A stretch of 63,863 bases of DNA, the filler included, from Psammoneis japonica (Eukaryota): the NCBI GenBank assembly GCA_008632985.1. It is 3 parts of 3 records of this genome, joined end to end, with 100 filler letters (N's around TTAATTAATTAA, not from the genome) between each part and the next. Parts side by side here need not be neighbours in the genome. Positions count along the whole stretch, not along the records: positions 1 to 29,847 come from QPGO01000411.1; 2 more parts are not named here. One strand, given 5' to 3'. Below the pieces are notes generated by a model that did no database searches, had not been told where the DNA came from, and saw only the letters and a program-made list of their open reading frames with translations. Shown here one piece after another: positions 4,091 through 63,863 of this stretch (positions within the stretch are counted from its first letter, which is position 1; each line of letters opens with the position of its first letter). The position numbers were made by a program, and so were the translations under genes.

Positions 4091-4182
4091 GTCCAGAAGT
4101 GTTTTTACAATTCTGTGTGCATTCCAATTGAAAGTACCTGCATGTTTTCAATGCCAGGTTCCCCGTAGAACAGCCAACCACC

Positions 4183-5949: not shown

Positions 5950-6249
5950 ACAGGGGTTGGACTTCGCCGCCTCCACCCCCTCAGACCATCAGGCATCCAC
6001 CTGACATCTCATCTCCTCCAAATGACTCCCTCACCATCTCCCATTTATTCCGCCGCACTGCCAAGCACCGCAAATTCTCCTACAATGCAGCATCACCCGA
6101 TAGTCAGAGCTCTTAGCCCCAGTCTTCTCCTTGGAGGAGCATGGCCCCAACATGAGTAGTGACTCCTTTAGTGCATCCTACATTAACGAATGGCAATCAC
6201 TCCTGAATGGCACCAGCAATGCAGCGTCAAGCACTTGAAGCATTGATTT

Positions 6250-8437
6250 TTCTCGGCTAACATCCAACGATCCTGTCGGAGATGACCTTCGTCCGAAGTT
6301 ACCTCTCATCATACTCGACTATACGCATTCAACGCCAACGGTTGTGAATTCGACAAAAGAGGTGGTGACATTCGCGAGTGTTGTCAAATAGCAAACGAGA
6401 TCCAAGCAGACGTCGTGGGCATTTCGGAAGTCTGTCTAGACACTATGCAGTATGATGTTCTCTCAGTGTGTCGATCTACTGTACACAATACAATTTCTAA
6501 CGGATGTGGCACCTTCTCATGCAGCTCTACCCCCTTTACTACTCAGTACAAACCTGGTGGTACGGCCCTCTTGTCGGGGAACTACATCTTGGCACGATGC
6601 CGAAGCCAAGAATCAGATCCACTGAGCCGTTGGTCTATTCAGATCTTCGACGGTCGCAATGGTAAGCAAGTCATGTTTATTTCGTGCTACAGAGTTTGTG
6701 CGAAAAATCAAAGGACCCCTGGAAAGACTACGGCACATGCACAAGAACAAGCAGCCCTTTTACAACAAAATGGTGGACAGTCTATTGACCCCAGGAAGGC
6801 CTTTTGTACGGATTTATCTCGCCGCCTACAAGAGTTCTTGGTCGACTCAAATCGCGAAGTTATCATTTGCGGAGATTTCAACACTGACTTCTCGGTTGAC
6901 ACGGACACTCTCGCCTCCCTCGCACAGCGTTTTACCCTTTCGGACGTGTCACACAACTTGATGGGCAGCACTGAATTTTCCACATACACGCGAGGACGGA
7001 AACGCCTGGACTTTGTGCTTGCTGCCGGTACCCCCGGTGCCTTGTCTGCAGCCAGGTTCAGTGGATATGAAGCATTCGGTTATCGTATTACTTCAGATCA
7101 CCGCGCTTACTTCGTGGACTTTGACACGATGGCCTTGTTTGGGAATCCCACTGTTGACTTACCCAAGGCCAGTCTTCTTCACAACCCCAAGTGACGACTT
7201 ACTTAGATGCCATCGGACCGATGTTAGCCAGCAGACAAATCTTGGCTCGCTCACAGGCACTACTCGACCAAGACGTCCCCAATCATGAACTAGCAGAAAG
7301 GTTAGATCGAGACATGTTACAGTTCTCCTTGGCTGCTGCTAAGAAGTGTCGGATCCACCAAGAACCAGAGTGGTTGGTCGAACTGTCACAACTGCAGCAC
7401 CAAGTTTATATCCTTAGCCGAGTGGTCTCAATGATGCATGCTCGCCTGGATCAAGTCAGCCATATCCGCACTATCCGAGACAAGCTACAAGGCTCCTTTG
7501 CCATCCCAGACACGCTGGAGGGATGTCTGCTTGCGCCTCGCGCCGCCCAAGCTGAATGTAGACAAGGTGCTGCTGAGAGCGTCGTACACCGTGAAAATGA
7601 AATGGCCGAGAAGATTGCCTCACTAGAACTGGAAGGCACAAAGGAGTCAAAACAGAAAGCAAAGATTATAAGAAATGTCCGCAAGGCCAAAGAAACCAAG
7701 AAACTTTTCTGTAAGATTGAATGCTGCAAACTGGATAGTGACAATGGAGTCAACAGCGTGCAGGTACCCCGGAATCCCACGGTGAATCCCAAAGAGTGTG
7801 AGGACTGGGTTACCATTGATGCCCCAGATGATGTGGCTTCCGCCATCTGCCACCGTAACCAGTGCCATTTCGGTCAAGCACACGGAACTCCTCCTGCTGT
7901 TCCTCCACTGTCCGTCGACCTTGGTTATGAGGCAGACACGATTTTCGCCGATCTAATCTTAGACGGTGAATACGACACCACCCAACTCAATGAGGCCACG
8001 TCTTGCTTTATTCAGCACCTCGAACGTCGTTCCCCGGTTGCCGTCTCCTCTTACCTCACGGCCAATGATTTAGAGGGTAAGTTAAAGTCATGGAAGGAAA
8101 CCACCTCTACGTCCATAAAGTCAGGATTGCACCTCGGTCATTGGAAGGCCATGCATGCTTCCCACGCTCATTCTTGTGCCAAGACAAAGGATGGAGATCC
8201 GTCGGAGGCCTGCATCCACCTAGATAATGTGCAGCAGACCTTGATGCAAATCCGGCTCAATCTGCTCAATTATGCCTTGCACTGGGGACACTCCTACGAC
8301 CGATGGAGGGACATTGTAAATGTGATGATATTCAAGGAAGCCGGCAATAACAAGATCCATTGTTTGCGCGTTGTTCACATCTACGAGGCAGATTTCCAAC
8401 TTATCTCAAGTGTCCTATGGTGTTCGTTGGCTCAGAA
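6250..8437 (+). pseudogene. ORF2 N-half of Ambal-like non-LTR retrotransposon (apurinic endonuclease plus pre-RT), frameshifted and cut by a CoDi insertion
   Basis: APE motifs FNANG, GISE, GGT, IICGDFN, TYTRGRKRLDFV, SDHR; RT-entry motif FKEAGNNKIH.LRVVHIYEAD. Confidence 0.88.
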
Positions 8438-8683
8438 TGACAGGATTTGAACAAGACTTTAGTTTGTCACACACAATTATGTGTGCTCTTAGTTCCGCAT
8501 GCATCGCGCGATGTAGTTTGCTTTCAAGCCACATGGCTCACAAGAATAACAACAGTAGCACCGATATCAAGACACCAGTCTTTCGGCTCCTGTAACGGTC
8601 TCTGCACGGAGACTCATCTGCTATTTAGACAGCAGTAAGGAGTTATTGTTTTCTTCCACCCCAGTCATCTTCATTTTCTGTCA
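8438..8683 (+). repeat. 5' LTR of CoDi-A
   Basis: Direct repeat of 15479-15723 with TG...CA ends. Confidence 0.97.
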
Positions 8684-8700
8684 GATTAACAGTCTCGCTC
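8684..8700 (+). promoter_or_regulatory. Primer-binding site complementary to a tRNA-Asn(GTT) anticodon arm
   Basis: gattaacagtctcgc immediately follows the LTR; reverse complement GCGAGA-CTGTTAA-TC; conserved at 22059-22075 in family B. Confidence 0.65.
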
Positions 8701-9125
8701 ATTCTTACCCATTGAGCGTTCCTCATCGTCATCAAGAAATTTTCAATGATGCGCACCCTTGGCGGTGGAAGTGCGTGTCTACCTTTTTCACTGCTGGACA
8801 CTGGATTAAATCTACACGTTTGGATTTATCCAATGCCTCCCATCGTTGGATATATTTATTCAACGGATATTTTTTGACCAGGAATTCCCGAATTCTCAAG
8901 CATCCGAGATTCCGGATTCCTCACAGCGGATCCTACTAATCCGTCCGCTCGCGTCCACGCGCACACGATATAAACCCTTGACTCTGGCCCTGCTCTACGC
9001 ACGCCAAGTCTACCGCCTTGTATCTACACCGGATTGCTGGTCTTCTACAGTTCTACAAGGTCCACGAGGACAACTGTGAGAGGAAGCAGTTCGTGATTAC
9101 AGCCTACGTTGGGGCGAGGGTGCAT

Positions 9126-9511
9126 GACGCGTTCCAGGTCTAGGTGGGACCTGGTACTACTGAACTGTGACATCGACAGTTTTTTGAATCTCGTCGTATG
9201 TCGCGCACGTAGAATTCTACGTGATTTTTTGACATTTTGTGTCATTTTACGGTACACTTATTGAGCGATCCGTCCAAAAACTTTTGACATTTTTTGTTAC
9301 AGCGCGATTCTATAATGTCTTAGGAATTGCGTAGGGCAGGTGCAATTGCAAAAACGTCGAGTGGTAAGAGGCATAATTGTACCACAAACTTGGCCGTTTA
9401 TTTGATGTTGATAAATATATGCACTAATTAAATTCTCGTACTACGGAGCTCGCACGTAGAATTCTACGGGCCCAATGTCACACGGAGTCCCACCTAGGGC
9501 TGGAACGCGTC
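9126..9511. mobile_element. MITE (386 bp) inserted in the CoDi-A 5' leader
   Basis: TIR gacgcgttccaggtctaggtgggac / gtcccacctagggctggaacgcgtc; 4-bp TSD GCAT; the homologous family-B leader (~21525-21560) has the empty site. Confidence 0.92.
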
Positions 9512-9905
9512 GCATTTCCCACGTTTGTTCGTCCCTCCACAGCGCCAAATTTGGCCGGCCTGATCGGGTTATCCAACCGATATAAAATAAGAACGGTTCG
9601 GAGGTCTTGTCCACCTCTAGTTAGCTTGTCAGCAGGGGTTTTTAACCCATTACTCCGCTATCAGGCAACCCAAAGCGTCACCAGCTGCGGGTTCGGACGT
9701 GCCGGCACAACCCTACGGACCGGATAGGAAGCTTAGCACTTAACTACGAACGGGGTGTCACAGCCTGGCGGCTTCTGACTCTTAAGATCGTTCAAGACAT
9801 CAAGTCAAGATTCAAGTCAAGTTTCAAGTTATTTCAAGTCAAGTTTCAAGTTGTTTCAAGCCCACACTCCGGTTTAGCTAGTTCCGACATCCACCTAGTT
9901 GCAAC

Positions 9906-12900
9906 ATGGTCCTCACCAGGCAACAACAAATCGATGGCCTCGAGCACATTCTAGGCACTGTCCTGAATTAAGCCACAGACAGTCCATTGCGCTCCGCCCT
10001 CAACATTGATGGAACCGATTCGTATCAGGACCTTTTCACTTTTACACCGATGCAATTGGATGCCCTTGTGTACAACGACGGCACCAATCAAATGCCCTTG
10101 CCACGTGGTTACAAAGCACAGATGGCTGCGCTGATTAGCCTTTACATGGTAAAAGCGCGCGGCGGCGCGGATGTTAGCAATGACCCTCAATTGTTCACGC
10201 AAGAGGAGTTCACCAACTATCATCTTAGTCCTGAGTATGTGGCGTCCCTCTCCATGGGTACAGCACCATCTGCTCCCACCCCTGGCTCGTTGCCACCCAA
10301 ACCACATGATCCCGTGCGTGACTTTAAACGAGGCATCAAACGTGACCCGCTCACCTTCGCGCTTCTCAAGTCTGACAAACAGTGGCACACGTGGCACACC
10401 TCCATCATCGCACAGGCCCACTCCCAAGACGTTGCACGCATTCTCGATCCGACGTACAAGCCCTCTACAGCTGAGAACAAGGCCCTGTTTGCTGAACAAC
10501 AGAAGTGCATGTTCACCGCATTTGAACGGATCTTGCAGAATGACAAAGGCAAGGCTCTTGTTCGTCAACATGTTGGCTCCTCTGATGCTCAAGCGGTGTA
10601 TCGTGATCTCTCCAAGTATGCCCTTACTTCCACTCGCGCATCCCTGGAGTCCTCGTCCCTTCTCACGTACCTCACCACTGCTCGCCTCGGTGATGGCACC
10701 TGGAAAGGATCCACTCATGCCTTCATACTCCACTGGCAGGACCAGCTCCGCGAGTGTGAAGCTCTCATCCCGGGTACGGACCATTTCTCTGCTGGCCAGA
10801 AACGTGTCATGCTTGAGAACGCTGTTCATCCTATCGAGGAACTCCGTAGGGTGAAGAATCAGGCCGATCAGTTCCGCATGCAGAATGGAAAGGGGCTCTC
10901 TTACGAAGAGCACTGTGGACTCCTGCTTTCTGCTGCAACACAGTACGACAGCACGTTCACCTCCAAGATGGCTCCTCGCACTCCACGCCGTGCCATCTAC
11001 GAACATGACCTGGTCCCTGACGACCCTGATGATGATGTATTCTTCGACATCCACAGTGATGTTGACATCATCCAAGCTTGTGCTGCATGAACTCGCGGCA
11101 ATTCCCTCACCAAGGAACAATGGCGTCGCATCCCGCCAGACCATCAGCGCATTTGGGACACCTTACCCCAATCCACCAAGGCCATCATTCTTGCCAACTG
11201 CCACGACTCGACGGCGGTCAACATGCACGACCTCCGCATTGGCAGTGATGGCGATGTCAACTTGTCCGCCAACACTCACGATCTTGCGTCAGCCTCCGCA
11301 CAATCCGACGCTACAGCCTATGCAGCCGATGCTAACCCCATTCTGGCTCATCTCACCAGGCGCAAGCCTCTGCCACCCGGCGACTTGCAACGTCTCCTGG
11401 CACCTGAACAGCCTCCTTCCGCCCATTCTGGCGAGAAACTGCCCGGATCCGCACCTGCCGTCTGCCCCGACGCGAAGCCCATTGACACTGACATTGAGAT
11501 CAACGGCCATAAATGCCGTCGCGTCAACAACCACAACGTCGTCTACTCTGCCTCGACCCACAAGTCAACTCGCAAAGGTGCTCTCGTGGATCGTGGTGCA
11601 AACAGTGGTATCGCCGGTGATGATGTTCGTGTCATTGCCTGCACTGGTTGCCAGGTTGACGTCCAAGGTGTCGACGATCATCAACTAGTCGACATTCCTA
11701 TTGTCACTGCCGGTGGTGTCATCCACACGCAACGCGGCCCTGCCATTGCCATCCTTCACCAGTGTGCCTGCACTGGAAAGGGGAAGACGATACACTCTTG
11801 CGGCCAGCTCGAGTGGTACAAACACGATGTCAATGATCGGTCCATCAAGGTTCCCAATGGTCTGCAGCGCATCACCACTGTCGATGGATACGTCATTCCC
11901 ATTGACATTAAAGCCGGCCTCCCGTACATTGCCATACACCCGTACACCGATGCCGAATGGGACACTCTGCCGCATGTCGTCCTCACTGGTGATGACACAT
12001 GGGACCCATCTGTCCTTGACCACCAGTTCACCGATGATGAAAAGTGGCATGATGCCGTGTCTGACCTCCAAGACGACCCGACTACCAACCTCTTCGATGA
12101 GTTCGGTAACACTATCATCACCACCATGTCGTCAACAACGCCATGCTTACAGACTCCGTCCTTGATGATCACCTGCTCCCGACATCTGATTTCTTCTACG
12201 AATGCCATGAGCGCGAACTCAATCCCAAGGATCCCGACTTTGAGTCCCTCCGCCCCCCCCCACTTTGGCTTTCTCCCAAAGGACACTGTCCGCCGCACTT
12301 ATGATTGCACGACGCAGTGCGCCCGCATGCCAGCCAGCACGCACCTGAAAAAGGCGTACAAATCGCCCAACCCGGCTCTCAATGTCCACCGATGTAATGA
12401 ACCCGTTGCTACAGACACGGTCCACTCCGACACCCCTGCTGTTGACTCTGGTTGCACCAGCGCCCAGCTCTTTGTTGGCATGGAATCTCTCGTCACTGAC
12501 GTGTATGGCAAACAAAACTGACAAAGAATTTGTCAACACCCTCGAGGACAACATTCATAACCGCGGTGCCCCGTCCAAGCTCATCAGCGACCGTGCTCAG
12601 GTTGAAATCAGCAACAAGGTTCTTGGCATCCTTTGTGCACTCTTCATCTCTAGTTGGCAAAGTGAGCCTCACCACCAGCATCAGAATTTTGCTGAACGCC
12701 GCTAAAAAACTGTGAAGACCATGGCCAACACCATCATGGATCACTTTGGGTCCCCAGCTTACACCTGGTTGCTCGCCCTGATGTATGTGTGCTTTGTGCT
12801 CAACCACACGGCGTCAGCCAAGCTCCACTGGCGTACCCCCACCGAGGTGCTGTCCGGCTCCACTCCCGACATCAGCCCACTCCTCCGCTTTCAATGGTGG

Positions 12901-15491
12901 GAACCCGTGCACTGCCACCTGGATGATTCTGACTGGCCATCCAAATCCCGTGAATTACGTGGTCGCTTCGGTGGCATCGCCGAACACGTTGGTCACCAAA
13001 TGACGTTCAAGATTCTTTCTGATGACACTCAGAAGATTCTCTGCTGTTCCAACGTGCGCTCCGCCCGTGATCCGTCTGCTCCAAACCTGCGTCTTGATCC
13101 TCCTGATAAGAAATCTGCTGACCCTGTCATTAAATCCTGCCACGACTCCAAGGATTCGCCAGATTCACCAGATGGGGAGGCGATCAGAATGCCCAAAATG
13201 CCGGTCTTTGACCCCGAGGACATCATCGGACGCACCTTCCTCATGAAGCCACAAGAGGATGGTCAACGCCACAGAGCCCGCATCGTCAAAGCCATTGAGG
13301 ACCACGACTGGAAAATTGGAGGCAATCCTGAACTGGTCAATTTCATTTGCTCCGTCAACAATGATGAATACGAGGAAGTCCTAGCCTGCAATGACATCAT
13401 GCACCACATTGAGCAAGAAGACGAGGACACAACCCTCTGGAAGTTCCGACGCATTGTGTTGCACGAAGGACCAATGTGACCCCATGATCCCTCTTGGAAA
13501 GGCTCAAGCTACAACGTCATGCTTGAATGGGAGAATGGGGAGATCACGTCCGAACCCCTTGCCATCATTGCCAAGGACGACCCTGTAACCTGTGCCATCT
13601 ATGTGCGTGAGCACGGCCTTCTAGAAACCGAAGGATGGAGATGTTTTCGCAAGATAGCCCTTTGCCAGAAGAAGCCATTCCGCATGGCCAACCAAGCCAA
13701 GTTATGCTCCTTTTGCACTGCGCCACGATACAAGTACGGGCATGAAGTGCCACGGGACTACAAGCATGCCATGGCCCTTGATGAGCGCAACGGCAACCGC
13801 AAGTGGGGAGATGCAACGGACCTCGAGATGACTCAGCTTGATGAGCACAAGGTCTTCCACGACTGCGGACACCACAAGGACTCCAGTGCTCCATCAGGAC
13901 ACAAGAAGATCCGGGTACACCTCGTCTACGACGTCAAACATGACGGATGGCACAAAGCAAGGCTTGTTGCTGATGGACACCTCACAGACGTGCCCGTCGA
14001 CAGTGTCTGTTCCGGAGTAGTGTCTCTACGTGGCCTGCGAATGATGATCTTCCTGGCCGAACTCAACGAGCTAGAGACATGGGCCACTGACATTGGGAAC
14101 ACCTGCCTTGAAGCTACGACCAAGGAAAAACTGTACATGGTAGCAGGCCCCGAGTTTGGCAACCTGGAAGGACACATCCTTGTCATCCACAAGGCTTTGT
14201 ACAGACTCCGCAGCTCCGGACTCAGATGGCATGAACGCTTTGCCGATTGCTTGCGTGCCGAAGGCTTCTTCCCATGCAAAGCCGAACCTGACATCTGGCT
14301 GCGTAGGAATGGTGACCACTATGAATACGTGGCAGTGTATGTGGACGACCTCGCCTTCGCCATGAAGGACCCCCAGGCTTTTGCAGACACCCTCATGGAG
14401 AAATGCAAGTTCAAGCTCAAAGGCACTGGACCATTGGAGTTCCATCTTGGCTGCGACTTCACCCGTGACCCAGACGGCACCCTGTGCCTTGCTCCCCGCA
14501 AGTACATTGAGCGCATGGTTGACAACTATGCGTGCCTCTTTGGGGAGAAGCCCCGCACTGATGTGCTTTCACCCCTTGACAAGGGTGACCACCCTGAGCT
14601 CGACACCTCCGAATTACTCAAACCGGATGGCATCCACCAATTCCAATCCTTGATTGGATCCCTGCAATGGGCCGCATCTCTAGGTCGCATTGACATTACT
14701 ATGGCTTTCATGTCCCTGTCTGGCTTCCGTGCAGCGCCCCGTCAAGGCCACCTAGACCGTGCCAAACGCATCTGCGGATTCCTCTCCAAGATGCGTCATC
14801 GGGCCCTCCGAGTACGCACCGAGGAGCCCAACTATTCGGACCTCCCTAAGCCCGTGTATGACTGGGCTCAATCTGTGTATGGGGAGGTAGAAGAGCTGCT
14901 CCCGCAAGATGCACCCGAGCCGCTTGGCAAGTTCGTCACCACCACACACTACGTTGATGCGAACTTGTTCCATTGCATGCTCACTGGACGCTCTGTCACC
15001 GGCATCCTCCATTTCCTCAAACATGTTTCCGGCTGATTGGTTCTCTAAGAAACAAGCAACAGGTGAAACCGCCACGTATGGATCCGAGTTTGTTGCCGCA
15101 AGGACGTGCGTTGAGCAGATCATTGATCTGCGCATCACTTTACGTTACCTTGGCGTTCCCATTCGTGAAACATGTTACATGTTTGGGGACAACAAGTCGG
15201 TTTTTTGTGGACAGTGCTACCATCCCGCACTCCAAGTTACACAAGCGACACACCGCCCTCTCGTTCCATCATGTGCATGAGGCGATTGCCTCCAGTTTCC
15301 TCGAGTTTCATTTTATCGAAGGTTCCCACAACCCGGCTGACATCCTCAGCAAGCATTGGGGTTACTCCCAAATCTGGAACCTCCTTCGTCCTCTAATGTT
15401 TTGGAACTTCGATCCCGAGGCTTTCAACCAATCCAACTTCGAATCTATCGCTGTTGACCCCTCAAGCAAACTGGGGAGTGACAGGATTTGA
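9906..15491 (+). pseudogene. CoDi-A gag-pol with stops and frameshifts
   Basis: Gag start MVLTRQQQ; protease LVDRGANSG; integrase VATDTVHSD and LISDRAQVE; RT KARLVADG and YVDDLAF; RNase H YVDANL, GDNKSV, NPADILSK. Confidence 0.95.
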
Positions 15492-15723
15492 ACAAGATTT
15501 TGGTTTATCACACATAATTATGTGTGCTCTTAGTTCCACGCGCATCGCGCGATGTAGTTTGCTTTCGAGCCACACGGCTCACAAGAACAACAACAGTAGT
15601 GCCGACATCACGACACCAGTCTTTCGGCTCCTGTAACGGTCTCTGCACGGAGACTCATCTGCTATTTAGACAGCAGTAAGGAGTTGTTGTTTTCTTCCAC
15701 CCAGTCATCTTCATTTTCTGTCA
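15479..15723 (+). repeat. 3' LTR of CoDi-A
   Basis: Direct repeat of 8438-8683, preceded by a polypurine tract. Confidence 0.97.
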
Positions 15724-16445
15724 CAGAATGTGGAGCACCGCAAATTGTACAACCCAGGCATTTATGGTACGCGTCCTTTCCTGCATGCTAATGTCCCAGT
15801 ATATTTGGAAGAATTGATGTTGGAAATCAGCAGGGTGTCTCGGAAAACGGCTATCCACAGCGACGGTGACTGTGTCTCCTGTTGTGACAGGAATGTTCCT
15901 GCTCTCGTAGTGCTTGAAAGTTGCAGCAATGGTATGCCCCAAGACCGTGACAAAGTCAGCAACATCTGCCCTCCTACAAGCTTGGCACTGGCTAAAAACA
16001 GCCATCGGATTGTCTTTCACCTCATGTTCCCACTCATCGGACTTTCCCATCTATGGCACAGGACAAGGCAGTGGAAACTCTCCACTATGCTGGAACCAGG
16101 TGTGTGTGACAGTTTGTTTAATCTCTTTGACCAAAAAGCTCACATTGCCTTCTTCGAGTCCCCTGATCATTCCGTGTCACTCAAGATCCACAACCGAGGA
16201 TACGTAGACGACACGTCCAAGCAGGTGAACGACTTCACTGCATCTCCTCAGCCTGATGGTTTGGAATTGGCATTTAACATGCAGCAAGACGATCAACTTT
16301 GGTGCGACTTGCTGAACGCAGCAGGACACGAGCTGGAACTTCCAAAGTGCTCCTTTCATGTCATCAAATGGAACTTTACGGAGGATGGCGAACCTTACCT
16401 CCGCACATACAATGATGACATTGTCACTGACATTTCCGTAATGTC
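15724..16445 (+). pseudogene. Continuation of Ambal-like ORF2 (reverse transcriptase), truncated
   Basis: Resumes after the TSD; motifs IYGTGQGSGNSP, GYVDDT, LELPKC. Confidence 0.88.
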
Positions 16446-17007
16446 AGTTACATGTTCGGTGACAACAAGTCGGTTGTAGACAGTGCCACCATCCCGCACT
16501 CCAAGTTACACAAGCGACACACCGCACTGTCATTCCACCGTGTGCGTGAGGCAATTGCCTCTGGTTACCTTGAGTTCCACTTCATCGAAGGCTCCCGCAA
16601 CCCTGCTGACATTCTCAGCAAGCATTGGGGTTGCTCCCAAATCTGGGACCTTCTCCGCCCCCTCATGTTCTGGAACTTCATTCCATCCAAAGTCGAATCT
16701 GTTTCTGTGGCTCCTCAAGCAAACTGGGGAGTGACAGGATTTGAACAGGATTTAGGTGCACGCGAAATGTCGCGCGCTGTTTAGTTTACCGCGCACAGTT
16801 TTGTGTGCTTTAGTTCCGCGCGTTCGCGCGCGATGTAGTTTGCTTTCGAGCCACAAGGCTCACAAGAATGATGACAGTAGCCCGATTGTACCGACTTACA
16901 CGTCTTTCGGCTCCTGCAACGGTCTCTGAGCGGAGACTCATCTGCTGTTTAGACAGCAGTAAGGAGTTGTTGTTTGAATTCTTGCCATTTGCCTTCAATT
17001 TCTGTCA
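16446..17007 (+). mobile_element. 3' fragment of CoDi family B: RNase H tail, PPT and LTR (16732-17007)
   Basis: MFGDNKSVVDSATIPHSKLHKRH...; 276-bp LTR nearly identical to the reverse complement of 18483-18759. Confidence 0.92.
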
Positions 17008-18825
17008 CATGATGTCATTTTGGGTCGAAACTTCTTGGACAAGATTGGTCTCAACCTGAGCTACGATACGAGAAAACTGCGATGGCTAGACCGTGTGATC
17101 CCAATGAAGGAACCTCGTCATTGGTCCAAATCCTACAACTGGTGTGTGGCTTTAGATCGAATGGATGAATTTGATGAAGATCATGAAGACGAGTCGGACT
17201 GTGGATGCGATGATGGGCATGACAGCCATGTGCTCAACGCCAAGCATGAAGCAACGGATCCAGCGGAAGTGGTTCGGAACTTAGATCATCTCATGGAGGA
17301 GCAAAAGAAGAAGCCACTAGCGGCATTGGAAAAACATGTGACCTTGTTTGACGGAACTTTGGGGCACTGTCCTCATGAAAAGGCACACCTCGAAGTGGAT
17401 GAAAATGCCGTTCCACATCACTCAAAACCGTTTCCTGTTGCTCGAGTCAATGAAGAGGCATTCAAAAAGGAATTGAAGCATTTGGTGAATCTCGGCGTAC
17501 TTCGACCATGTGGACCTACGGAATGGGCAGCCGGCACCTTTGTCACTCCGAAAAAGGATGGCCGAGTACGATGGGCATCCGATTTTTGGGAGCTCAATAA
17601 AGTCCTCAAGTGGAAGGTGCATCCTTTGCCAGTTGTTCAAGATGTGCTACAGTGGAGAGCGGGCTACAAGTTCTTCACGAAATTAGATCTCACGATGTTC
17701 TACTGCAGTTTGGAATTGGACAATGAAAGCAAGGAGCTCGCTACGATTGCAACTCCGTACGGAAAGTTTCAGCATTGTCGCATGGCTGTGGGATTGAAAC
17801 CAGCTCCAGATGTTGCTCAGTCCATCATTGAAAAGATCCTGCATGATTTGGATGTTGAAACTTACATTGATGACATTGGCACATTTGACACTGACTTTGA
17901 TTGCCATCTCTCTCGTCTTGACAAGGTGCTGCATCGTCTCGAGGAGAATGGTTTGAAAGTTAACCCGTTGAAATGCGAGTGGTGTGTCCAAGAAACTGAT
18001 TTTCTAGGGCATTGGCTCACTCCAACTGGAATTAAACCGTGGAAAAAGAAGGTCAAGGCGATCCTGCGAATGCAACCTCCACGGGACATTACTCAGCTCC
18101 GGTCGTTTCTCGGTGCAGCAACCTGTTGTCGTAACATGTGGCCTCGCCGTTCTCACCTGCTTGCACCTCTGACTGAATTGACAGGAAAGAGTCAGTTCCA
18201 ATGGACAGAATCATGCCAGAAAGCGTTCAAGGAGATGAAAGCAGTAATCGCGGCGGAAGCGTTGATGGCCTGTCCTAACCATGACCTGCCATTCCATGTC
18301 TACACCGATGCATCAGACTGCCAGATGGGTGTTGCTGTTGTTCAAGATGGTAAACCTGTGGCACATTGGTCTAAGAAGCTCTCGGCGGCTCAACGAAATT
18401 GCTCAAGAATGGAAAAGGAACTCCCAGCCGTCGTCATGTGCTTCAAGGAATTTCGTTGAATGTTGCTCGGTGCCGACATTGCTGACAGAAATTGAAGGCA
18501 AATGGCAAGAATTCAAACAACAACTCCTTACTGCTGTCTAAATAGCAGATGAGTCTCCGCTCAGAGACCGTTGCAGGAGCCGAAAGACGTGTAAGTCGGT
18601 ATAATCGGGCTACTGTTGTTATTCTTGTGAGCCTTGTGGCTCGAAAGCAAACTGCATCGCGCGCGAACGCGCGGAACTAAAAGCACACAAAACTGTGCGC
18701 GGCAAACTAAACAGCGCGCGACATTTCGCGCGCACCTAAATCCTGTTCAAATCCTGTCACTCCCCAGTTTGCTTGAGGAGTCACAGAAACAGATTCGACT
18801 TCGGATTGACTAAAGAACTTTGGAG

Positions 18826-21121
18826 TCAAAGCACCAAAACATGAGGAGACAAGAAAGGATCAAGATCCGAGAGCAATGTTGCATTCTCCAAGTGGGTCAT
18901 CTTGAGATGAGCTGCGTCTCCCCAATTGCAGATGCCGTTGTGCTTTTCAAAGCTCAAGGCACACTTGGGATCTTGTGGGATTCCACATCCGCGCTTGCAA
19001 TGGAAGGAGCAAAGCTTGGTCTGGTTGACAATGTGGAACGGTGGGGCAACATTGCAGGCGGCATGGCGTTTGCACGACTCGGGGAACAGAGCAAGCATCA
19101 GTTCAAAGGCACAAGCGGTGGTCTTGTGTTCCACCAATCCGACTGCATCTCCTGAGAGACTGATCCAATTGGAGAAACGAGTCTCAAGGTGCAAGCCTTC
19201 GGGGATCGGATTGGAGCAAGACATCTTGTGGTGCAAGGCTGCAGATGTCTGATTGGGGCAACCAGTCCCGTGCTGCAAGACTTCTGGGATCCAAAAGGAC
19301 TTGCCAGTGTTGTGACACGAGTCTTCGGGGATCCAATCAGGAGGCCAAGTCTTGAGGTGCGAGACTTGGGGGATCCAATCAGGAGGCCGAGTCTCGTGGC
19401 GCAAGACTTGAGGGATCCAATCCGGAGGCCGAGTCTTGAGGTATGAGACGTGGAGGATCCAATTGGGAGGCCCGGTCTTGAGGCACGAGACGTGGAGAGT
19501 CCAGTTGGGAGGCCTGGTCTCAAGGCACGAGACTTGGGGCATCCGATCAGGAGGCCCAGTCTCGATGTACGACACTTGGGGCATCCAATCAGGAGGCCCA
19601 GTCTCGAGGCACGAGACTTGAGGCATCCAATCAGGAGGCCTAGTCTCGAGGTGCGAGACTTGGGACATCCAATCAGGAGACCTGGTCTCGAGGTACGAGA
19701 CTTGGGGCATCCNAATCAGGAGGCCCAGTCTCGAGGTACGAGACTTGAGGCATCCAATCAGGAGGCCTAATCTCGAGGTACGAGACTTGAGGCATCCAAT
19801 CAGGAGGCCTGGTCTCAAGGTACGAGACTTGAGGCATCCAATCAGGAGGCCTGGTCTTGAGGTACGAGACTTGAGGCATCCAATCAGGAGACCTGGTCTC
19901 GAGGTACGAGACTTGGGGCATCCAATCAGGAGGCCCAGTCTCGAGGTCCGAGACTTGGGGCATCCAATCAGGAGGCCTAGTCTCGAGGTACGAGACTTGA
20001 GGCATCCAATCAGGAGGCCTAGTCTCGAGGTACGAGACTTGAGGCATCCAATCAGGAGACCTGGTCTCGAGGTACGAGACTTGGGGCATCCAATCAGGAG
20101 GCCCAGTCTCGAGGTACGAGACTTGGGGCATCCAATCAGGAGGCCTAGTCTCGAGGTACGAGACTTGAGGCATCCAATCAGGATTCCTGGTCTCGAGGTA
20201 CGAGACTTGAGGCATCCAATCAGGAGGCCCAGTCTCGAGGTACGAGACTTGAGGCATCCAATCAGGAGGCCTGGTCTCATGGTGCGATGCTTGGAGGATC
20301 CGAAGACAACGAAGCTGCTTGGATGTCCTGATCTCCCCATCTGATGAACCGGTTGAACTGTTGTGAACAGATTCAATGACGGGAAAAGGAGGCTCCCCAT
20401 CAGGAGATACGAGAAGCAAGTTGTCACCTCCATCACTTCCCAAACGAAGACTGTGAAGGGTGACAGCGACAGAAGTCGACACGTGGAGGTTGGCAGCACG
20501 TGGTTTGCGGGGTGCAAAGACTGCAGCTTTGGAAGCCATGGGTGGAGTGTCCCAACTGGTCTCGAAGTGCGGGCCTGTGCAAGGGCTGCAATCCTGCACT
20601 GGGCCGAGGTTGCTTGCAGGCGGGTTGGTCAAGACATGCGGGGCGCGACTGACACCACTTCTAGGGGACACCTGAGTGGTGGCACAGTGCAAGGCTGGTG
20701 TCAAAATGGCACTGGGTTCATCTGGTTTGGATGGCAAGGGACTCGGCACAGGTGCGGAGGGTGCTGCGCCAGTGGCTAGAGAGGTCAAGCAGTCCGGACC
20801 AAGGCGGTAGTTGCGAAATTCCTCTGGTGTGAGCAACTGGGGTTCATTGGTCACATCATCACCGTTGCAAACTTTGACAAAGTAGAAGCTGATCAAAGCT
20901 GCTAGGAGGTTTCTGTGGGTCTGTGGCAAAGGCACTACATTGGCGCCGTCTCTGTAAGTGAGGGCGTCAATTTGGGTGGGTAAGAACGTGAACAATTCCT
21001 CGCACGATTCAATCCTGTTGATGGACAGGGCAGAACGAAGAGGGCTGTCATCGTCTTGATTGAGCACAGTGCCTAGAATGTATTTGAAGCTTTCGGTTTG
21101 TTGCTGTTGCGTGAGAACCAT
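18826..21121 (-). CDS. Mosaic Gag-N / linker / 14-aa repeat protein (~764 aa if the single N at 19713 is removed)
   Basis: N-terminus homologous to CoDi-A Gag; ORFs 19673..21121 and 18826..20517 join in the ETRPPDWMPQVSYL frame at an extra N base. Confidence 0.6.
19160..20300. repeat. 42-bp tandem array, about 27 units, each with a hairpin
   Basis: Unit ggcatccaatcaggaggcctagtctcgaggtacgagacttga; stem agtctcg/cgagact; units decay toward 19160. Confidence 0.97.
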
Positions 21122-23488
21122 GACGGAGGACGGTGCAGTAGAAACAAAAGACAGGAACCAATCTAGAGCGCGATCTTGACTCGGAGTTTTGACTTGGAAC
21201 TTGGCTTGAAAAAGACTTGACTTGAGCTAGACTTGACTTGAAATCTTGGACTATCTTAAAATCAGAAGTTGCCGGGCTGTGCTATCCCGTTCGTTGTTAA
21301 ATGCTAAACTTCCTATCCGGTCCGTAGAGTTGTGCCGGCACGTCCGAACCCGCAGCTAGTGGCGCTTTGGGTTGCTTACGAGTGGAGCAGCGGGTTGTAA
21401 ACCCCTGCAGGTAAGCTGACTAGAGGTGGACAAGACCCCCGAACCGTTCTTATTTTATATCGGTTGGATTTCCCGATCAGGCTGGCCAGTTGACGTAGGC
21501 GTTAGGCGCTGTGGACGAACGAACAAACGCGGGAAAACACCCTCGCCCCAACGTAGGCTGTAATCACGGCTACTTGCTCTCACAGTCGTCCTCGTGGACC
21601 TAGTAGAACTGTAGAGCACCAGTAGTCCGGGGTAGATCAGGTATAATGGACTCGGTGTGCTTGTAGAGTGGCAGCAAAACCGTAGTCCGAAGAGTGGGTA
21701 CAAGTTCTTGGCCGTGAAGACATGTACATATATATGTCTTCAGCGACGGAGATCCTTGAATATGTAGGGTTCTTGACCGTGAACCGTTGAATGGGTATAT
21801 CAAGGGATGAGGATCAAGGATAGACTTGGACATGACCGTTGAATGTATGTCTTCAGCGATCAAAGGTAGTATAATCAATCCAGACATCCAGCGGTAAGGA
21901 GACTTGACGGTGACGTTAACTTCCTGCCGATGCCCTGGTATTGAATGCGCGTAGACTTGCCGATGTACGTAGAATATATACGGAGGTCCACGCAGAATTG
22001 AGATAGTGTCGTCGGTAAATCAACAACGACGATGGCGGTTGCTCAATGGGTTGACAATGAGCAAGACTGTTAATCTGACAGAAATTGAAGGCAAATGGCA
22101 AGAATTCAAACAATGGCTCCTTACTGCTGTCTAAATAGCAGATGAGTCTCCGCTCAGAGACCGTCACAGGAGCCGAAAGACGTGTAAGTCGGTATAATCG
22201 GGCTACTGTTATTATTCTTGTGAGCCTTGTGGCTCGAAAGCAAACTACATCGTGCGCGAACGCGCGGAACTAAAAGCACACAAAACTGTGCGCGGTAAAC
22301 TAAACAGCGCGCGACATTTCGCACGCACCTAAATCCTGTTCAAATCCTGTCAATTGCTGTTCATGCTGATCACAAAAATCTCACCTTTCGCACTTTGAAA
22401 ACACAGCGCGTCCTTCATTGGCGACTGTTCCTTGAAGATTTCGCGCCTGCCTTTAAGCATGTCGAAGGCAAGGACAACGTGCTCGCCGATTGTTTTTCTC
22501 GACTCCCACGCACAGATCCGCCTTCGGAGGGGAAGAGCCTTGGGCCAAGTGGCAAACGCAAAGGAAAAATCATTCATTTTGAAAAGTTGGATTCCAAGGA
22601 ACTGAGCAAAGCCGAGGAAGAGGAAGATTTGGAGTTGGGCGCTTGCAGGTTCAAGTGTTGCCGTGCTCCGGTTGATCCTTCTGATGAGTCTCACGCCGCC
22701 TTTTCCTCTCTGCTTGATGAGCCTGAATTGTTTGAGTGCTTTTTGAATTATCCGACGCTGGACGAAATGCCGAATCCCACTGAGACACTAAGGACACAAC
22801 AGTTCCAGTTCGAAGACCTCCAACTGAATCAGCAAAGACAACAAAATCCGCAGCAGTTCGTGGTCAAGATTGTGAATCATCGTCCCTTGATTTGTTGTCG
22901 TTTGCATCTGAATGATCTGCCTGGAGCCTGGAAAATTTGCATTCCTGCTGCGTTGTTGCTAACATCACATGCACTGTGGTTGTCACTAACCCACCTTCAA
23001 ATGTTCAACAGGCCAAGCAGATTGTGGATGATGCCCTTGCTACAGCCTCTTGTGCTTTGTGATGCTCCCACTCAAGGTCTGTGGGTGTTTCAAGTGGAGC
23101 TCTAGTGTTTCAGCGTGATGTGATTTTGGACTCACCAGTTATCGCCGACCTTGCTACGATGCAAGCCAACCGACAAGCATTGTTTGACGAGAATCTACGA
23201 CGACAGAATGTGAAGCGCCATTCCTGCGATTGTCTAGTTGGTCAAGATGCATCAATCAAGTAGGTGGATCCTTCAAAGTTGGAAGAACGAGCCCATGGTC
23301 CGTTTCGAATTGTACAAGTCCATGCCAACGGGACTGTTTCGGTGCTACGAGCACCGCACGTTATTGAGCAAATTAACATTCACCACGTGGTGCCGCATCG
23401 GAGTTGAGGGTTTCTTCCCAACGTCTGGGTTCCCTTCTCCATGCGCATTGGGTTTGAATTGTAGTCGAGTGGCTCCAATGGTGCGCGT

Positions 23489-23884
23489 GACGCATTCCAG
23501 CTCTAGGTGGGACCTCGCACTACTGGACTGTGACATAATTATTTTTTGTCATCCGTCGTATGTTTTGCACGTACATTTCTACGTGTTCTATTGTAAAAAA
23601 TTGTTCCACACTGCCTCTTTTGCGAAGCCAAAGGCTTTCTGTTTTCTACATTTATGACAATAAAAATGCGCTGGGCACATTGTTTAATGTCTAAAGAACA
23701 CACCTGGGCAAACCATAAATGACGTACTTCAAATTTGGAGGAGGAGATACGTTCGTAAAATTGCCTCTATTTCTGTCAGCGATCATTCATATTTTCATTG
23801 CTTAATAATTTTACTATGGAGCTCGCACGTAGAATTCTACGCGCCCAATGTCACAAAAAGTCCCACCTAGGATTGGAACCCGTC
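23489..23884. mobile_element. MITE (396 bp), same family as 9126-9511
   Basis: Related TIRs gacgcattccag..taggtgggac / gtcccacctaggattggaacccgtc; TSD GCGT; empty site seen in the Gypsy-1 copy at ~28660-28680. Confidence 0.9.
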
Positions 23885-24098
23885 GCGTGTTCCTTGCACC
23901 ATGGAGGGGAAGAGTGAATGAGATGGGCACATGCACTTTATGACCAAGTGTGCCCTCTCTGACACATGCACATTAACTGACGTATTAGATGTTCAGGAAG
24001 CCATTAGAAGTGTGTTCTCCGATCAGCGATTGAGTTGATTGGGTCCGTTCTCGGTTCTCCCACAACTTTTATCAAGTCATCTCAAGCTAGATCTTGCA

Positions 24099-29949: not shown

Positions 29950-30522
29950 ATGGCTGCTCCCACACCTGCTCTGACGGGAGCATGCTGCACGCCGTTCAGA
30001 CGCAACATGTGCGAAGTTCTCTCCAGTGCAGACTGCGCTCTTGAAGGAGGAGCACACCAGGGAGACAATCAGGCGTGCCAAAGGACACGCTGTCCAAGGC
30101 GTGGAGCTTGCTGCCTTGAAGATGGCGATTGCTTCTTGAGCACCTTGGCTGGTTGCAACAATGGCAAAGTCTTTCAGGGTCGCGGCACTGAATGCCATGA
30201 TGGCACCGGTGCGCCTGTGTGTCCGGCGGCCCCACCCACGGTTGAAGTGGGCCGCTGCTGCCTTCCCAACGGCGATTGCGATGCAACCACCCCCGCAGAA
30301 TGCAATGATCAGTTCGGAGTGTGTCAGGGAGTCGGTGCTGCGTGCGGTGGTTCCGATGATCACTGCAGCGAAACAGGAAGTTGCTGTGTGGATTTCAAGC
30401 CATTCTGTGTTGATGTCAATGTTGTGGTTTGCAAGAAGAAGCGAGGCGACTTCCAGGAAGACACCGCATGCTTTGACACCTGTTGGTGTCCCGGTGAGGC
30501 CTGGGCTTGGAGATGCCAGTGA
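29950..30522 (+). pseudogene. Cys-rich protein fragment with four G[ARS]CC repeats, 5' end in the gap, mutated
   Basis: Repeats GACC..C..C..GGxHQGD..C; likely Tyr sites appear as His/Cys. Confidence 0.6.
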
Positions 30523-31654
30523 CCGAAATCACAACATGTGTTTTAGCGAGGAGACATGTGATGTGAGAACAAGCCAGTGATGTTGTGCCACCATGACACC
30601 TCTGCACAATCGCACCTGTCCGAGCCCCTCCGCAATGAGAAGCAAACAGGGCTTGGGTCCAAGTTAAAAAAAACAGTGTCCATGTTTTGTGAACATTGCA
30701 CAAGCAGTGGGTGTCCGGCAGCAGTTTCAAGGCCTCAAATGTTCATTGGTGGTGACTGACATGTTCTCAGAGACCTCGAACAATCCACTCATGATGACAT
30801 GTGGCATGGTGGAGCATGACAATGCCAATTCAAGACCCCAGAATAATTCTTCCGACTGTCTTGGAAGTCACCATGAGCGGCCGCCGGCCACAAGGGTTGC
30901 GCACTTCCTTCATCCAAAATGACGACCTCGAGACAGCAACAGCCACAAGCGGCAAAAGTCTCCACTTGCTCGAACGCTCTCGTGTGTCGCAATCATGTCC
31001 CAAACAGCACGCAAAAAGTCTTTCGGCCGAATAGTTTGAATGCAATTAATCGGACATGAGCACAAGACAGTGAAAGGAAATCCAAAAACTTCTCCATCAG
31101 GACCACCAGCAGCTTGCCCTGATCAACCGCCAAGGCAACACATCGCATTGGAGCTGAGGAAAAGAAATTTCGGCTAGGACAAACTCGTCATTCACAAATG
31201 GCATGGGAACTAAATTGGAGAGCCTGTGCTCAGCAAGTGCACACAGGTGCTGGTCACTGCATCCGACAATCGCAGAACAGTGTGTGTCCAACCTTCAACA
31301 ACAAGGAAGGCAGAGTGCAGTCTTGAATGAATGGCTGGAACAAACTTGCAACAATGCTCTAAGACAGGTTCGAAATCTGTCCGCATCGCTTGATGAAGAT
31401 CATCTGTCGTCTGCCGTGTCGATGCCTGGCGATTTTGCGTCTGTCATGCAATCATTCAGAAAAGACTGTCGTCCCATGGCACCCCATGGCACCCCTTCAC
31501 AAGTGGAGAATGTGGTTTTAATGTCATGGTGATGTGATGTTCACGTCATGGATTTTTCATGCGTTGTCATGTCACTTGATTTTGCATTTGCACACAAATG
31601 CCAACAGCAACAGGAAAAATCCTGAACCACACTCTTTTCTCCCTGAATCTCAAG

Positions 31655-34600
31655 GACGAGTCGTCTGGAACCGACCACAGGCAAAGTCATTTTTTGACCT
31701 TTCTCGCAACCACGAAAAAAGCACGTGTCACATCGGATCAACCATGATGATGCCTTGCGACTCTTCCCCAATGCCTTCCCAGGACACCGTTCCCACCGGC
31801 ACTGTTGACAACGGCGCTGATGCAACAGGCAATGTCATCACTTCTGTTCTGAGTGGCCTGATGTGTGCAAAACAAGATGCTGCAAACTGACGCTGTTGTC
31901 TCCATGCTCCACTGCCTCCCACAGATGCTGTCACAAATGCCAGCACTGCCCCTGTGTTTCTTTTGACTGGCATGCCCGACACTGTTGCTCACTCCCTCAG
32001 TGCAACAGGTGCTGTTGATGCTGTCATTGTCTTGTGCCAACAACATCTGCTGTCAATTGCTGCAAACTGACACTGCCATTTCCATGCTGCGCTGTCTCCA
32101 ACAGACAATGTTGCAAGTGCCAATGCTGCACCTGCACTTGGCTTCACCAGCATGCCTGACACTGTTGCTCCTGCCATCACTGCATCATGTTGCAGGTGCG
32201 CTGTTGATGCTGATCCACAATCAAGTGCAACCAACTCACACACTGTTTTCCATTCCCGCCCCACTGCCTCCCACAGATGCCATCATGAGCACCAAGATGC
32301 CAACGTCTCCCCCATCATCCCCAACCCCTCCCAATGCTGCTGCACCCCGCATGGGCGGACGGTTGCCCACTTGCTCTGGCAGTTGTCACCCAAATGCAAC
32401 TGCCGTGTGATCCAGAAGACATCATTTTTTTTTCTCCTGATCCCGCGCCTGTTGCGCAGGCTCCAACTTGCAACTGGTCCACTCTGGTTGTCCCCTCTCC
32501 TGAATGCATTCCCTCTGAGCATTTGTGTGTTGTTGTTGAAGGCATGGAAGGGCAGGTTCTCAAGCCATCAGGTTTGCAGCTTTGCACTCAAAACAGAAAA
32601 CAGAAAATCAAGGAAGAGGCAACATTGGAGCTGGACAAATCCACCTTGTTTTCTATTCTTTGAGACCCTGTTGTTGACTCTTCTTTTTCTTCTGGGTCTT
32701 TCTTGCCTCCCAATGTTCCTTCATTGATGAGAGAAATGCAACTCTAAATCACTGTCCAACAACAAGCAAAAGCAAAATGCTTCCAGTGACTCAGCCAAGC
32801 CACCCGTCCCCGTGCAACATCACCTTCAAAAGGATTTTCAGAAAAAGTTGTTCCCTGAAGTTGATTGGGCATTGTTGGATTTGAACCAACTCCTTGCACA
32901 CCATCACAGTCATTTGATTCTGGAGAACATCCTTTGAGTGCCGGTCAGTTCCAAGATTGTTCTTTTGATTTCTTCTTCCCATGACACTTTTGCACTGACG
33001 TGGAAGCCCGTGCTCACTGCCATGTGTGCTGGCTCTCCCTCCATTGCTGTTTGCATTGGCAAGGAATTCTTCTTCATCATTGAAGCAACCATTTCCAGCC
33101 AGGCCCACCAAAAGAAACTGCAAGAAAAAGACTCAACTGCAACAGAACTGGAGCACCTTTGCACTCGCCAAGGCAGTGGTGCTGTTGTTGTTGCACCGGT
33201 GGGCAGTGCATCTGTGTCTTTCGAGGTCAAGCACTGTGACATGTTCCACTCCTGTGCAACGTTGCACATGTGGGCTGCACTCTCCCGCACAACAACCACA
33301 TGCGTTTGCTGCTGGGAAAAGTGAAAAACACAAACCATCATGCTGCAATGCTCAATCGGTGTGTGCAGGAACTGCGGGGCAATGGCCGTGCTGTTCATGT
33401 CCTTTGCCACAATGAGTGTGACCCACTTTTAAAGGACAGCAAGCTGGGTGCTCAGCTGGCCCATTGCAAACAAGGTGGCATTTCTGCAGATTGGATTCGG
33501 CAGTTGTTTGACATTGGCACAAGCAACACCACGTTAAATGACTTTGTTTCATTTGTCAGGGGCTCATGCAAGACTGCCATTTGTTCCTGTTTTGGATGGT
33601 TCATGGCTTTGACCTCCCCAATTCTTGATCAGGCTGCTGTTGTGGCAATCACTTGGCAGTTTTGCAAAACAATGCCATTCCACTGCATTGCATTGAGCAC
33701 TTTGTTGAGCTGCGAGGCAAAGAAAAACCTTTCCACCAAACAACAGCTCCTTCCCATTTGGGATTGGTTTGTTTTGCATGTTTTCATGTCCATCATGCAC
33801 ATCCAAAATTCTCATTCTTTTGCATGATGGTCCTGCCGCAACACTGCTGCCATGTGTGGATCATTGGGCTTGACATCGAGATCAAAGCTTTCTGTGTGTT
33901 TTGGACAAGCGGCAACACAACAAATGCCATTGCAGAAGACACGTTTGTTTGCCAACTGTGCAACTGTCATGGACAATGCAAACAAGTCCTTGATTGCTTC
34001 TGAAACCTTTGGCGCACCCACATTTGACAATTCTCAGGTGCATCTTTGCCCCATTGTCATGCCATTCCACATGTTTTGTTTCTGCATTCATGGCACCAAC
34101 TGTCCATTGATTTCTCATGCTTCTTGAGGTGGTGGAATTGCTTGAGTTTCAGTGCAACCGCCAGTCCTCCAATGTCGCCAAGACCACCTCTTGAATGTTC
34201 ATCAAGCCGCATGTCCAGCCCCTTGCCCAACTTTGCATCTTGTCCAATGGTGATCTCTCCACCTGACTCCATCACTCATGTCAACCAATGCATTCCTTTG
34301 CCATGCGGCATGCCCACATGTGAGTCCAACCCTGCTTTGCTTTGTGCTGATGCATTGATTGCAGCCTTCCAAACCTCCAATGCATTTCTGGAAGCTGCAG
34401 ATTCAACTGGCACCCGTGCAGCCCGGCATGCATCAATTGTGTCTCTTGCAACTGTGGCACACATGCACCGAAACTGTGTTCCTTGGGTTGGCGCTGCTTT
34501 TTCTTTTCAGCCCACCTCTGGTGTAGAATCCATTGATCAGATGCAGGTCCAACAAAAGCTCACACCCAACTGAGCGGCAAAGGGATTCTGCCACTCCTGC

Positions 34601-39478: not shown

Positions 39479-39639
39479 GTCTTCCGCTTCATTCCCAGCA
39501 TTGGTGTTTTATGGTTGAGGTATAAAGTCTGGAATCCTTTACGCAACGTGCACAGCACCTAGAGCACCTACCAGCAGCAATGGGCCGACTAAATCAAGAG
39601 GGCGATGTACTCAAATGCGACCTTAAGAGCCTAAAATCC

Positions 39640-61422: not shown

Positions 61423-61429
61423 AGACAAA

Positions 61430-63805: not shown

Positions 63806-63863
63806 CAGTTGGACAAATGCTGTGCGATGATGCTGTGCACAACACATGCCTGAATGTGTGCTG

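Follow-up and report, generated by a model that had tools for sequence, protein, structure and literature searches.

A complete long terminal repeat (LTR) retrotransposon is found in a stretch of 63,863 nt from the genome of Psammoneis japonica (assembly GCA_008632985.1), three parts of which are joined end to end and together are called the window here. The element occupies positions 18483–22352 (3,870 bp) with its sense strand on the minus strand. Its 3′ LTR (18483–18759, minus strand) and 5′ LTR (22076–22352, minus strand) are 277 nt each; pairwise comparison gives 96% identity over 278 nt, and 267 of 277 sites are the same without any indel, the 10 differing sites corresponding to a Kimura two-parameter (K2P) distance of 0.0375. 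The LTR termini are TG..CA (TGACAG...CTGTCA), and a 5-bp target-site duplication (TSD), ATTGC, is read on the left at 18478–18482 and on the right at 22353–22357, which matches the structural definition of an LTR retrotransposon. The first-pass annotation of this DNA had described the LTRs, the TSD and the polypurine tract (PPT) as intact, and it is borne out by the LTR pair, by ATTGC on both sides and by a PPT kept in three elements of the window.

The element is nested in another retrotransposon. A Gypsy-like frame for reverse transcriptase (RT) and RNase H, identified by Pfam, occupies 16978–18482 on the plus strand, is split by the insertion and resumes from 22358. Within 16978–18456, Pfam reports RVT_1 (6e-17) and RT_RNaseH_2 (1.9e-22), the latter with its profile cut at position 90 of 100, and excision of the element together with one ATTGC rebuilds the host frame as ...MLLGADIA followed by VHADHKNLTF (MLLGADIAVHADHKNLTF). 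Because the RNase H profile is cut and the frame is restored in this way, the element is placed in the RNase H of a Gypsy-like element. Contigs from Gypsy paralogues run straight across the insertion site, with joints 18479>22358 and 18453>22353.

The internal region harbors one very long frame at 18826–21121 on the minus strand, starting with an ATG at 21121 and ending with a stop at 18826–18828, which is located 66 nt ahead of the 3′ LTR. This frame, 764 codons plus the stop, is open only when a single N at 19713 is dropped, and the terminal stop is then the sole stop; translation thus confirms the initial description of one ~764-codon frame broken only by that N. Measured by the 42-nt repeat period of the surrounding array, the N is one base too many (spacing 127 = 3×42+1): the unit bearing it reads catccNaatcag, while the other units read catccaatcag. 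As an extra base it breaks the frame as written in the middle of the array, leaving an open reading frame (ORF) of 482 aa followed by a second open stretch. Contigs of four runs (X1–X4), all from one sample that is possibly the source of the assembly and aligned at 85% likeness, leave the N unsettled, and the sole loose end nearby belongs to a contig fitting two units.

In the 442 non-repeat codons, counted as the sum of the N- and C-terminal parts, there are no stops, while each of the other five frames has 10–17 (3–14 within a single part). Markov simulations of these codons give 10–12 stops on average, and 0 of 1000 are open in each of two orders. The open state of the non-repeat codons against this expectation indicates that they inherited old coding frames. 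The sequence is also poor in stops: the observed/expected ratio of TpA amounts to 0.27 within the frame (0.39 window-wide), and stops occur at a frequency of 0.033 per codon compared with 0.047 under equal codon use. These values are in line with loss of TpA as a cause of lengthened ORFs, an alternative raised at first pass.

The encoded protein is collinear with a second retrotransposon in the window, a decayed full-length relative (“CoDi-A”) at 8438–15723 on the plus strand, which carries an RVT_2 match (3.7e-26) and the TSD CAGAA. The LTRs of this neighbour (8438–8683 and 15479–15723) are 93% alike, and its region 9906–15479 has received three in-frame stops and two frame changes. Four pieces are found in the same order in both elements, all on the minus strand in the shorter one. 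The Gag N-terminal domain (aa 1–136; 20714–21121) is 57% identical to 9906–10313 (E 2e-43), with a ratio of nonsynonymous to synonymous substitution rates (dN/dS) of 0.21. It is followed by a post-gag piece (aa 184–235; 20417–20572; 44% identity to 11136–11264, E 1.5e-5, dN/dS 0.27), and by a piece of the interval between gag and RT (aa 234–263; 20333–20422) with 50% identity over 32 aa to 13084–13179, a match whose E of 0.007 was computed in a small database. The second and third pieces join at an Asn-Leu common to both parental sites, which, judging from the two sequences, looks like a microhomology junction. Beyond the repeat array lies a pre-RT piece (aa 683–752; 18865–19074; 39% identity to 13642–13863, E 1e-10, dN/dS 0.52). 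For the intervening regions, aa 137–183 and 264–281, neither blastn-short nor tblastx returns anything significant from the window.

A fifth piece is read in another frame. The remnant of the pol C-terminus with the 3′ untranslated end (18760–18870, minus strand) is 74% identical at the nucleotide level to 15372–15475; translated in its ancestral frame it yields SRILILSCLLMFWCFD, where the neighbour has SQIWNLLRPLMFWNFD, while the ORF itself reads LSDLDPFLSPHVLVL and then stops. The last junction (~18870) is therefore off the ancestral pol frame, and the ORF ends 14 codons on. The mosaic proposed at first pass, with pieces of the relative stitched in order, stands for its four collinear pieces, and this out-of-frame pol C-terminus had not been set apart there.

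None of the enzymes expected from a complete element is recognizable in the protein. Pfam matches no family in either half. Only aa 1–136 align to Gag, and the core (FRRGIKRD...) found after the N-domain in relatives is absent. The earlier statement that all enzymes and the Gag core are missing holds to this extent, while for protease and integrase the loss is judged by position only: in the neighbour itself, Pfam detects neither rve nor a protease family in 11091–12518 or 12706–13476, even with the cut-off relaxed to E ≤ 10, and no PDB sequence matches there. The neighbour's gag–RT interval, 2.4 kb, has the size expected for protease plus integrase, a correspondence of size only. As no protease or integrase family is detectable there, “integrase–RT linker” for the third piece is a label given by position. 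In the element itself, the RT by which copia-type elements are recognized is absent (0 Pfam families); from sequence comparison its link to Ty1/copia would run only via the LTR, the leader, the gag N-domain and the pol remnants, all homologous to the RVT_2-bearing neighbour. A closer relative is represented by its 3′ end, internal part and LTR, at 16447–17007 on the plus strand, the LTR being 95–96% identical to those of the element. Between the 3′ LTR of the neighbour and this fragment (15724–16446) there is also a 269-aa open frame with YVDD, without a Pfam match and unrelated to the neighbour's pol.

The signals flanking the frame are well preserved. Adjoining the 5′ LTR, a stretch like a primer-binding site (PBS), GATTAACAGTCTTGCTCATTG (22055–22075, minus strand), has 19 of 21 positions the same as 8684–8704 in the neighbour. 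This 21-mer does not begin with TGG, and ARAGORN finds 0 transfer RNA genes in the window; the stretch might correspond to the anticodon arm of a tRNA-Asn, or might serve for self-priming. Directly after the PBS-like stretch comes a hairpin with 10-nt arms (22039–22064, minus strand), whose counterpart at 8694–8720 in the neighbour has a C-G pair in place of a T-A pair. At the other end, alignment of the three elements reveals a PPT-like sequence, CAAGCAAACTGGGGAG (18760–18775, minus strand), adjoining the 3′ LTR; its boundary reads ...AAACTGGGGAG followed by the TG of the LTR. The tract is identical in the element and in the fragment at 16520–16741, and is conserved at the 3′ end of the neighbour.

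The leader is long and, before the gag start, free of ATG. An ATG scan finds none in the 601 nt at 21122–21722 (minus strand), where ~13 would be expected from the density in the window (0.022 per nt); the leader of the neighbour is ATG-free over 430 nt, or 680 nt when an element inserted in it is set aside. Within the leader, the block 21250–21640 is conserved above the level of gag, with 89% identity at 21538–21637 and near-identity in much of 21250–21545, compared with 71% in gag. Its counterpart consists of 9022–9122 and 9514–9800 of the neighbour, and the block, on the minus strand, contains CCAACCGATATAAAATAAGAACGGTTCGG. Rfam gives 0 matches at E ≤ 1 over 8000–23000, the folding z-score of the block is 0.10 with 55 of 100 shuffles folding as well, and 2 of 62 pairs are compensatory in a comparison of two sequences only. 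A packaging signal or an internal promoter may be offered as guesses for its function. The remaining part, 21640–22030 (minus strand), is unalignable to the neighbour and contains internal repeats, a palindrome (gaagacatatatatgtacatgtcttc) and all four ATGs of the leader; one contig joins 21308 to 22062, omitting most of it. The insert in the leader of the neighbour (~390 nt, 9122–9513) has terminal inverted repeats (gacgcgttccaggtctaggtgggac / gtcccacctagggctggaacgcgtc), a 91% copy at 61135–61422 and pieces at 23485–23593 and 23812–23886, and by these sequence features looks like a miniature inverted-repeat transposable element.

The middle of the protein is made of a tandem array with a 42-nt (14-aa) unit, consensus ETRPPDWMPQVSYL, delimited at 19144–20278 on the minus strand by Tandem Repeats Finder (TRF) and translation. 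TRF reports the 42-nt unit 22.9 times at 89% (19317–20278). Translation gives 23 clear units at 19312–20278 (aa 282–603) and ~4 degenerate ones at 19144–19311 toward the C-terminus, all in frame, so the ~27 repeats counted at first pass are recovered. Both strands leave two of their three frames open in the consensus unit, and with a unit open in four of six frames the openness of the array is no evidence of coding. Furthermore, the 16 variant types among the first 18 units are 4 synonymous and 12 nonsynonymous, and the ratio over all 23 units is 10:23. Under transition-weighted neutrality, 25% of unit variants would be synonymous, 69% would be nonsynonymous and 6% would create a stop. With a synonymous share of 25–30% against 25% expected, the repeat peptide is without sign of purifying selection.

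No source of the repeat is apparent from comparison. The unit has no significant match elsewhere in the window by blastn-short or tblastx. In metagenome contigs, a 24-nt repeat-unit pattern and a 35-nt LTR pattern both have 0 matches, and in viral contigs the repeat-unit pattern has 0 as well. A word-indexed protein search with aa 1–469 returns nothing at E ≤ 0.001 among proteins of near, shorter or longer length. AlphaFold2 run on the single sequence of aa 1–469 reaches a mean predicted local distance difference test score (pLDDT) of 44.6, with 50–62 in the repeat and below 50 in aa 82–287, a confidence too low for describing the repeat.

The retained Gag N-domain is better characterized. A HMMER search of 1.84 billion representatives with aa 1–281 as the query finds 91 proteins at E ≤ 0.001, two of them at ≤ 1e-10, and all matches fall within query aa 1–161, with identities of 24–39% and protein lengths of 75–797 aa. 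In 88 of the 91, the match begins within the first 20 residues, and the relative of 797 aa continues like the gag and following region of the neighbour. None of 16 relatives scanned with Pfam reaches a curated cut-off, and the one sub-threshold match is Tugs (E 0.0017). AlphaFold2 on aa 1–136 with a 28-row alignment gives pLDDT 91 and a predicted template modelling score of 0.77. Foldseek returns nothing at E ≤ 0.001 for this model. An independent structure search has nothing but SAM entries in its top 15 rows, with Z of 5.5–6.7 and root-mean-square deviations of 1.7–3.0 over 61–76 residues; no match reaches Z 8, and values under 8 can, by the search tool's own note, mean a common helical arrangement. 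Pfam finds no SAM match in the element protein, and the SAM-like nature of the modeled domain may be taken as a lead only. The dN/dS of 0.21 reflects mostly the autonomous ancestors. Three of the 91 relatives (P0005, P0007 and P0015, ~400 aa) contain two tandem copies of the domain: P0005 has no GIKRD core motif, P0007 has a GIKHD remnant between the copies, and P0015 has none in the aligned rows. Since such double-domain proteins exist, P0005 even without GIKRD, the N-domain may occur apart from a capsid; these proteins may be decayed elements or domesticated genes.

Contigs of the four runs show how the parts of the element are represented in the sample. Summed word depths, which are not copy numbers, reach 155,000–291,000 in five of the six LTR bins of X1 and 65,000 in the right-end bin that includes flank; they are 51,000–122,000 in the leader bins (21261–21965), 3,000–18,000 in the ORF bins, and 938 and 2,452 in the flank bins. 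A contig of depth 3,385 matches 18871–19034 with two differences and ends at the last junction, which fits an abundant relative continuing into RT. The inner junctions are bridged by contigs in X2 (20311–20467 and 20475–20631), X3 (18968–19441) and X4 (19043–19431). Behind 19142, one contig each in X3 and X4, but no contig in X1, carries a 12-nt insertion. Two contigs in X1 have lost 6 nt at 20469, and two 1-nt deletions in the array are carried by one contig each. Among the 40 differences listed, beyond which there are 108 more, three are substitutions in the ORF, all nonsynonymous (18869 S>L, 18993 R>C and 20721 D>G).

Taken together, the element is probably a non-autonomous deletion derivative of the copia-like (RVT_2) family represented by its neighbour, and its long frame looks mainly like an inherited by-product. 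Still present are both LTRs, the PBS-like stretch and its hairpin, the leader, 136 gag codons, the PPT and the 3′ end, all of which a helper would act on in trans; gone are the Gag core, the gag–RT stretch with the expected protease and integrase, RT and RNase H. Proteins of an intact relative would package, reverse-transcribe and integrate the RNA of the element, which in this case would have landed in the Gypsy-like RNase H with a 5-bp duplication. Then or earlier, the array would have grown as a 42-nt minisatellite in what was left between two pol pieces. That 764 codons are open would be due mainly to the parental frames, two chance in-frame deletions and a repeat unit whose length divides by three and which has four open frames, and further to a sequence poor in stops and too short a time for decay. 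Of the first-pass reading, a satellite that hijacks or inhibits helper particles, the enzyme-free, non-autonomous derivative with intact ends is supported, and the need for a selected frame is not.

The first-pass annotation took the survival of the frame across at least four deletions and an expansion as a hint of selection. This argument is weakened by the count of junctions: the last one is off-frame, and two deletions are clearly in-frame, an outcome of ~1 in 9 by chance. The array has a unit of 3×14 nt and is bounded by pieces in one and the same ancestral frame, so it requires no in-frame deletion. Nor has there been much time to lose the frame. From the LTR distance, ~43 substitutions are expected in it since insertion, and as 90 of 2,292 possible transitions create a stop, the probability of no stop is 0.19, or ~0.05 in an estimate by hand if only C/G sites mutate. 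The neighbour has LTRs diverged by 6.8% and five disabling lesions over 5.6 kb, from which ~1.1 lesions are expected in the frame, also by hand, with P(0) of ~0.34; one is observed if the N is a real base. These tests do not support selective maintenance of the frame, and a role for the protein is a weak possibility. We infer that selection on the protein is absent.

Several points weigh against the deletion derivative with an inherited frame. The joint chance of two in-frame deletions and no stop is a few percent (~0.11 × 0.05–0.48, by hand), a rarity that is inflated because the element was chosen for its long frame. The ATG and the N-domain are intact. The +12-nt and −6-nt variants of the ORF in the contigs are both multiples of three, while the −6 state matches that of the neighbour and so may derive from autonomous relatives. 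Finally, the window harbors no intact helper, the neighbour being decayed, and protease and integrase are undetected even there by Pfam and PDB sequence search, leaving their loss to be judged by position.

Some of the same observations can be read as signs of a working protein, in which the SAM-like N-domain and a beta-rich repeat would join the helper Gag and either favour packaging of the element's own RNA or poison assembly. SAM domains are self-associating modules, and the confident model of the N-domain (pLDDT 91), the SAM entries filling the first 15 rows of the structure search, the position of the domain at the head of 91 Gag-like proteins and its dN/dS of 0.21 against the neighbour would all suit such a function, as would the tandem-domain proteins P0005 and P0007 if the domain can exist without a capsid, the in-frame indel variants in contigs and the two in-frame junctions. 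However, purifying selection is not seen among the repeat units, the SAM matches stay under Z 8 with nothing from Foldseek at E ≤ 0.001, and the dN/dS derives mostly from autonomous ancestors; the model is poor in the repeat (pLDDT 50–62) and in aa 82–287 (below 50), and the N may be a real frameshift. A working protein is unlikely. Its most specific form would have the algal copia-like Gag begin with a SAM-like domain and the element be kept for expressing this N-domain alone, fused to a ~27-unit beta-strand repeat and docking on the helper Gag to steer particles or block assembly, as an N-terminal counterpart of Ty1 p22 on a mobile satellite; so detailed a scenario is distinctly unlikely.

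Or the act of translation itself may matter, rather than its product: a frame that closes only 66 nt short of the 3′ LTR would let the RNA escape nonsense-mediated decay, or stay among the translated RNAs from which the helper Gag takes its cargo. The neutral variants of the repeat unit fit a frame kept regardless of its peptide, and the ATG-free leader of 601 nt would protect scanning to the gag start in the family, but this leader is inherited from autonomous elements that need it anyway, and the neutral expectations for survival (P 0.19; ~1 lesion) apply equally here; this explanation is very improbable. That the whole structure is an artefact of assembly, a chimeric or collapsed repeat join with the N marking the mis-join, is hardly credible. 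The N does lie inside a near-identical array, where assemblies often collapse, and the true number of units is uncertain for this reason; yet the matched LTR pair and a perfect 5-bp TSD restore a continuous RNase H frame of the host, and contigs of X2–X4 bridge the internal junctions, though not as independent evidence if the runs are the source of the assembly. The deletion derivative with an inherited frame is preferred over all of these.

All 10 differences between the LTRs of the element are transitions, several at CpG, as are 15 of the 16 substitutions between those of the neighbour, and this near-complete bias fits deamination of methylated cytosines, which may have occurred in silenced repeats. 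Four blocks, 1–3000, 30001–36000, 39001–42000 and 60001–63863, have extreme losses of TpA (observed/expected 0.0–0.15) and CpG (0.10–0.74) together with an excess of TpG and CpA (1.56–1.96), a pattern suggestive of transition pressure that drives both dinucleotides toward TG/CA. TpA observed/expected is 0.56 in the gene-rich 45–58 kb and 0.39 in the whole window.

In plants, non-autonomous LTR elements are amply documented, while for algal copia-like lineages only automatic annotation was found in open-access text. The present copy shows the parts that the family cannot lose, namely the LTRs, the PBS-like stretch, the leader block, the ATG-free leader, the gag N-domain and the PPT, and the retained set can serve as a map of candidate cis signals. 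The copy also advises caution: where repeat DNA is depleted of TpA and poor in stops, even a very long frame is, on its own, no evidence of a gene. If the minority reading of a working protein were true, it would represent a Gag-derived modulator of a new kind.

Derivatives of the large retrotransposon derivative (LARD) and terminal-repeat retrotransposon in miniature (TRIM) types are internally deleted and helper-dependent and, as described, without coding capacity. The element is like them in its internal deletion and dependence on a helper, and unlike them in a long frame with gag and pol remnants. Non-autonomous LTR derivatives are indeed a known kind, as exemplified by TR-GAG elements (PMC4350172) and by putative TRIM/LARD entries in the diatom Phaeodactylum (PMC5859163). 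No description of the present architecture was found in the open-access literature, and the word “non-autonomous” is absent from the main text of the 2009 paper on CoDi elements (PMC2806351).

TR-GAG elements of plants are described as short (<4 kb) non-autonomous LTR retrotransposons with a single gag-derived ORF (Chaparro et al., 2015; PMC4350172). The element shares with them the length below 4 kb (3,870 bp), the LTR features, one frame when the N is dropped and the lack of pol enzymes. While TR-GAG elements encode a Gag precursor, only 136 aa of Gag are kept here, without a GIKRD-type core, and the rest is remnants of the pol linker plus the repeat; the element is, moreover, not from a plant. 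CoDi elements are Ty1/copia-like elements of diatoms, whose groups are delimited by phylogeny and by the similarity of their RTs (Maumus et al., 2009; PMC2806351). As in that description, an RVT_2 RT is present in the neighbour, the TSDs are of 5 bp and the element is nested in another LTR element; unlike in that definition, the element has no RT, and the neighbour is linked by its RVT_2 profile, not by placement in a tree.

LTR retrotransposons with internal tandem repeats are reported in the Retand lineage (PMC11963269), which likewise has a minisatellite in the internal region; in the element, by contrast, the array lies in an open frame and has a period divisible by three. Ty1 p22/p18 is a truncated, self-encoded Gag restricting the helper (PMC4599808, PMC8458377), to which the element was loosely compared at first pass. 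The two are alike in that a truncated Gag encoded by the family could act on the helper Gag. The comparison does not extend to the protein itself: p22 corresponds to Gag's C-terminal half and comes from an internal transcript, whereas the part of Gag retained here is the N-terminal domain only, on a separate deleted element.

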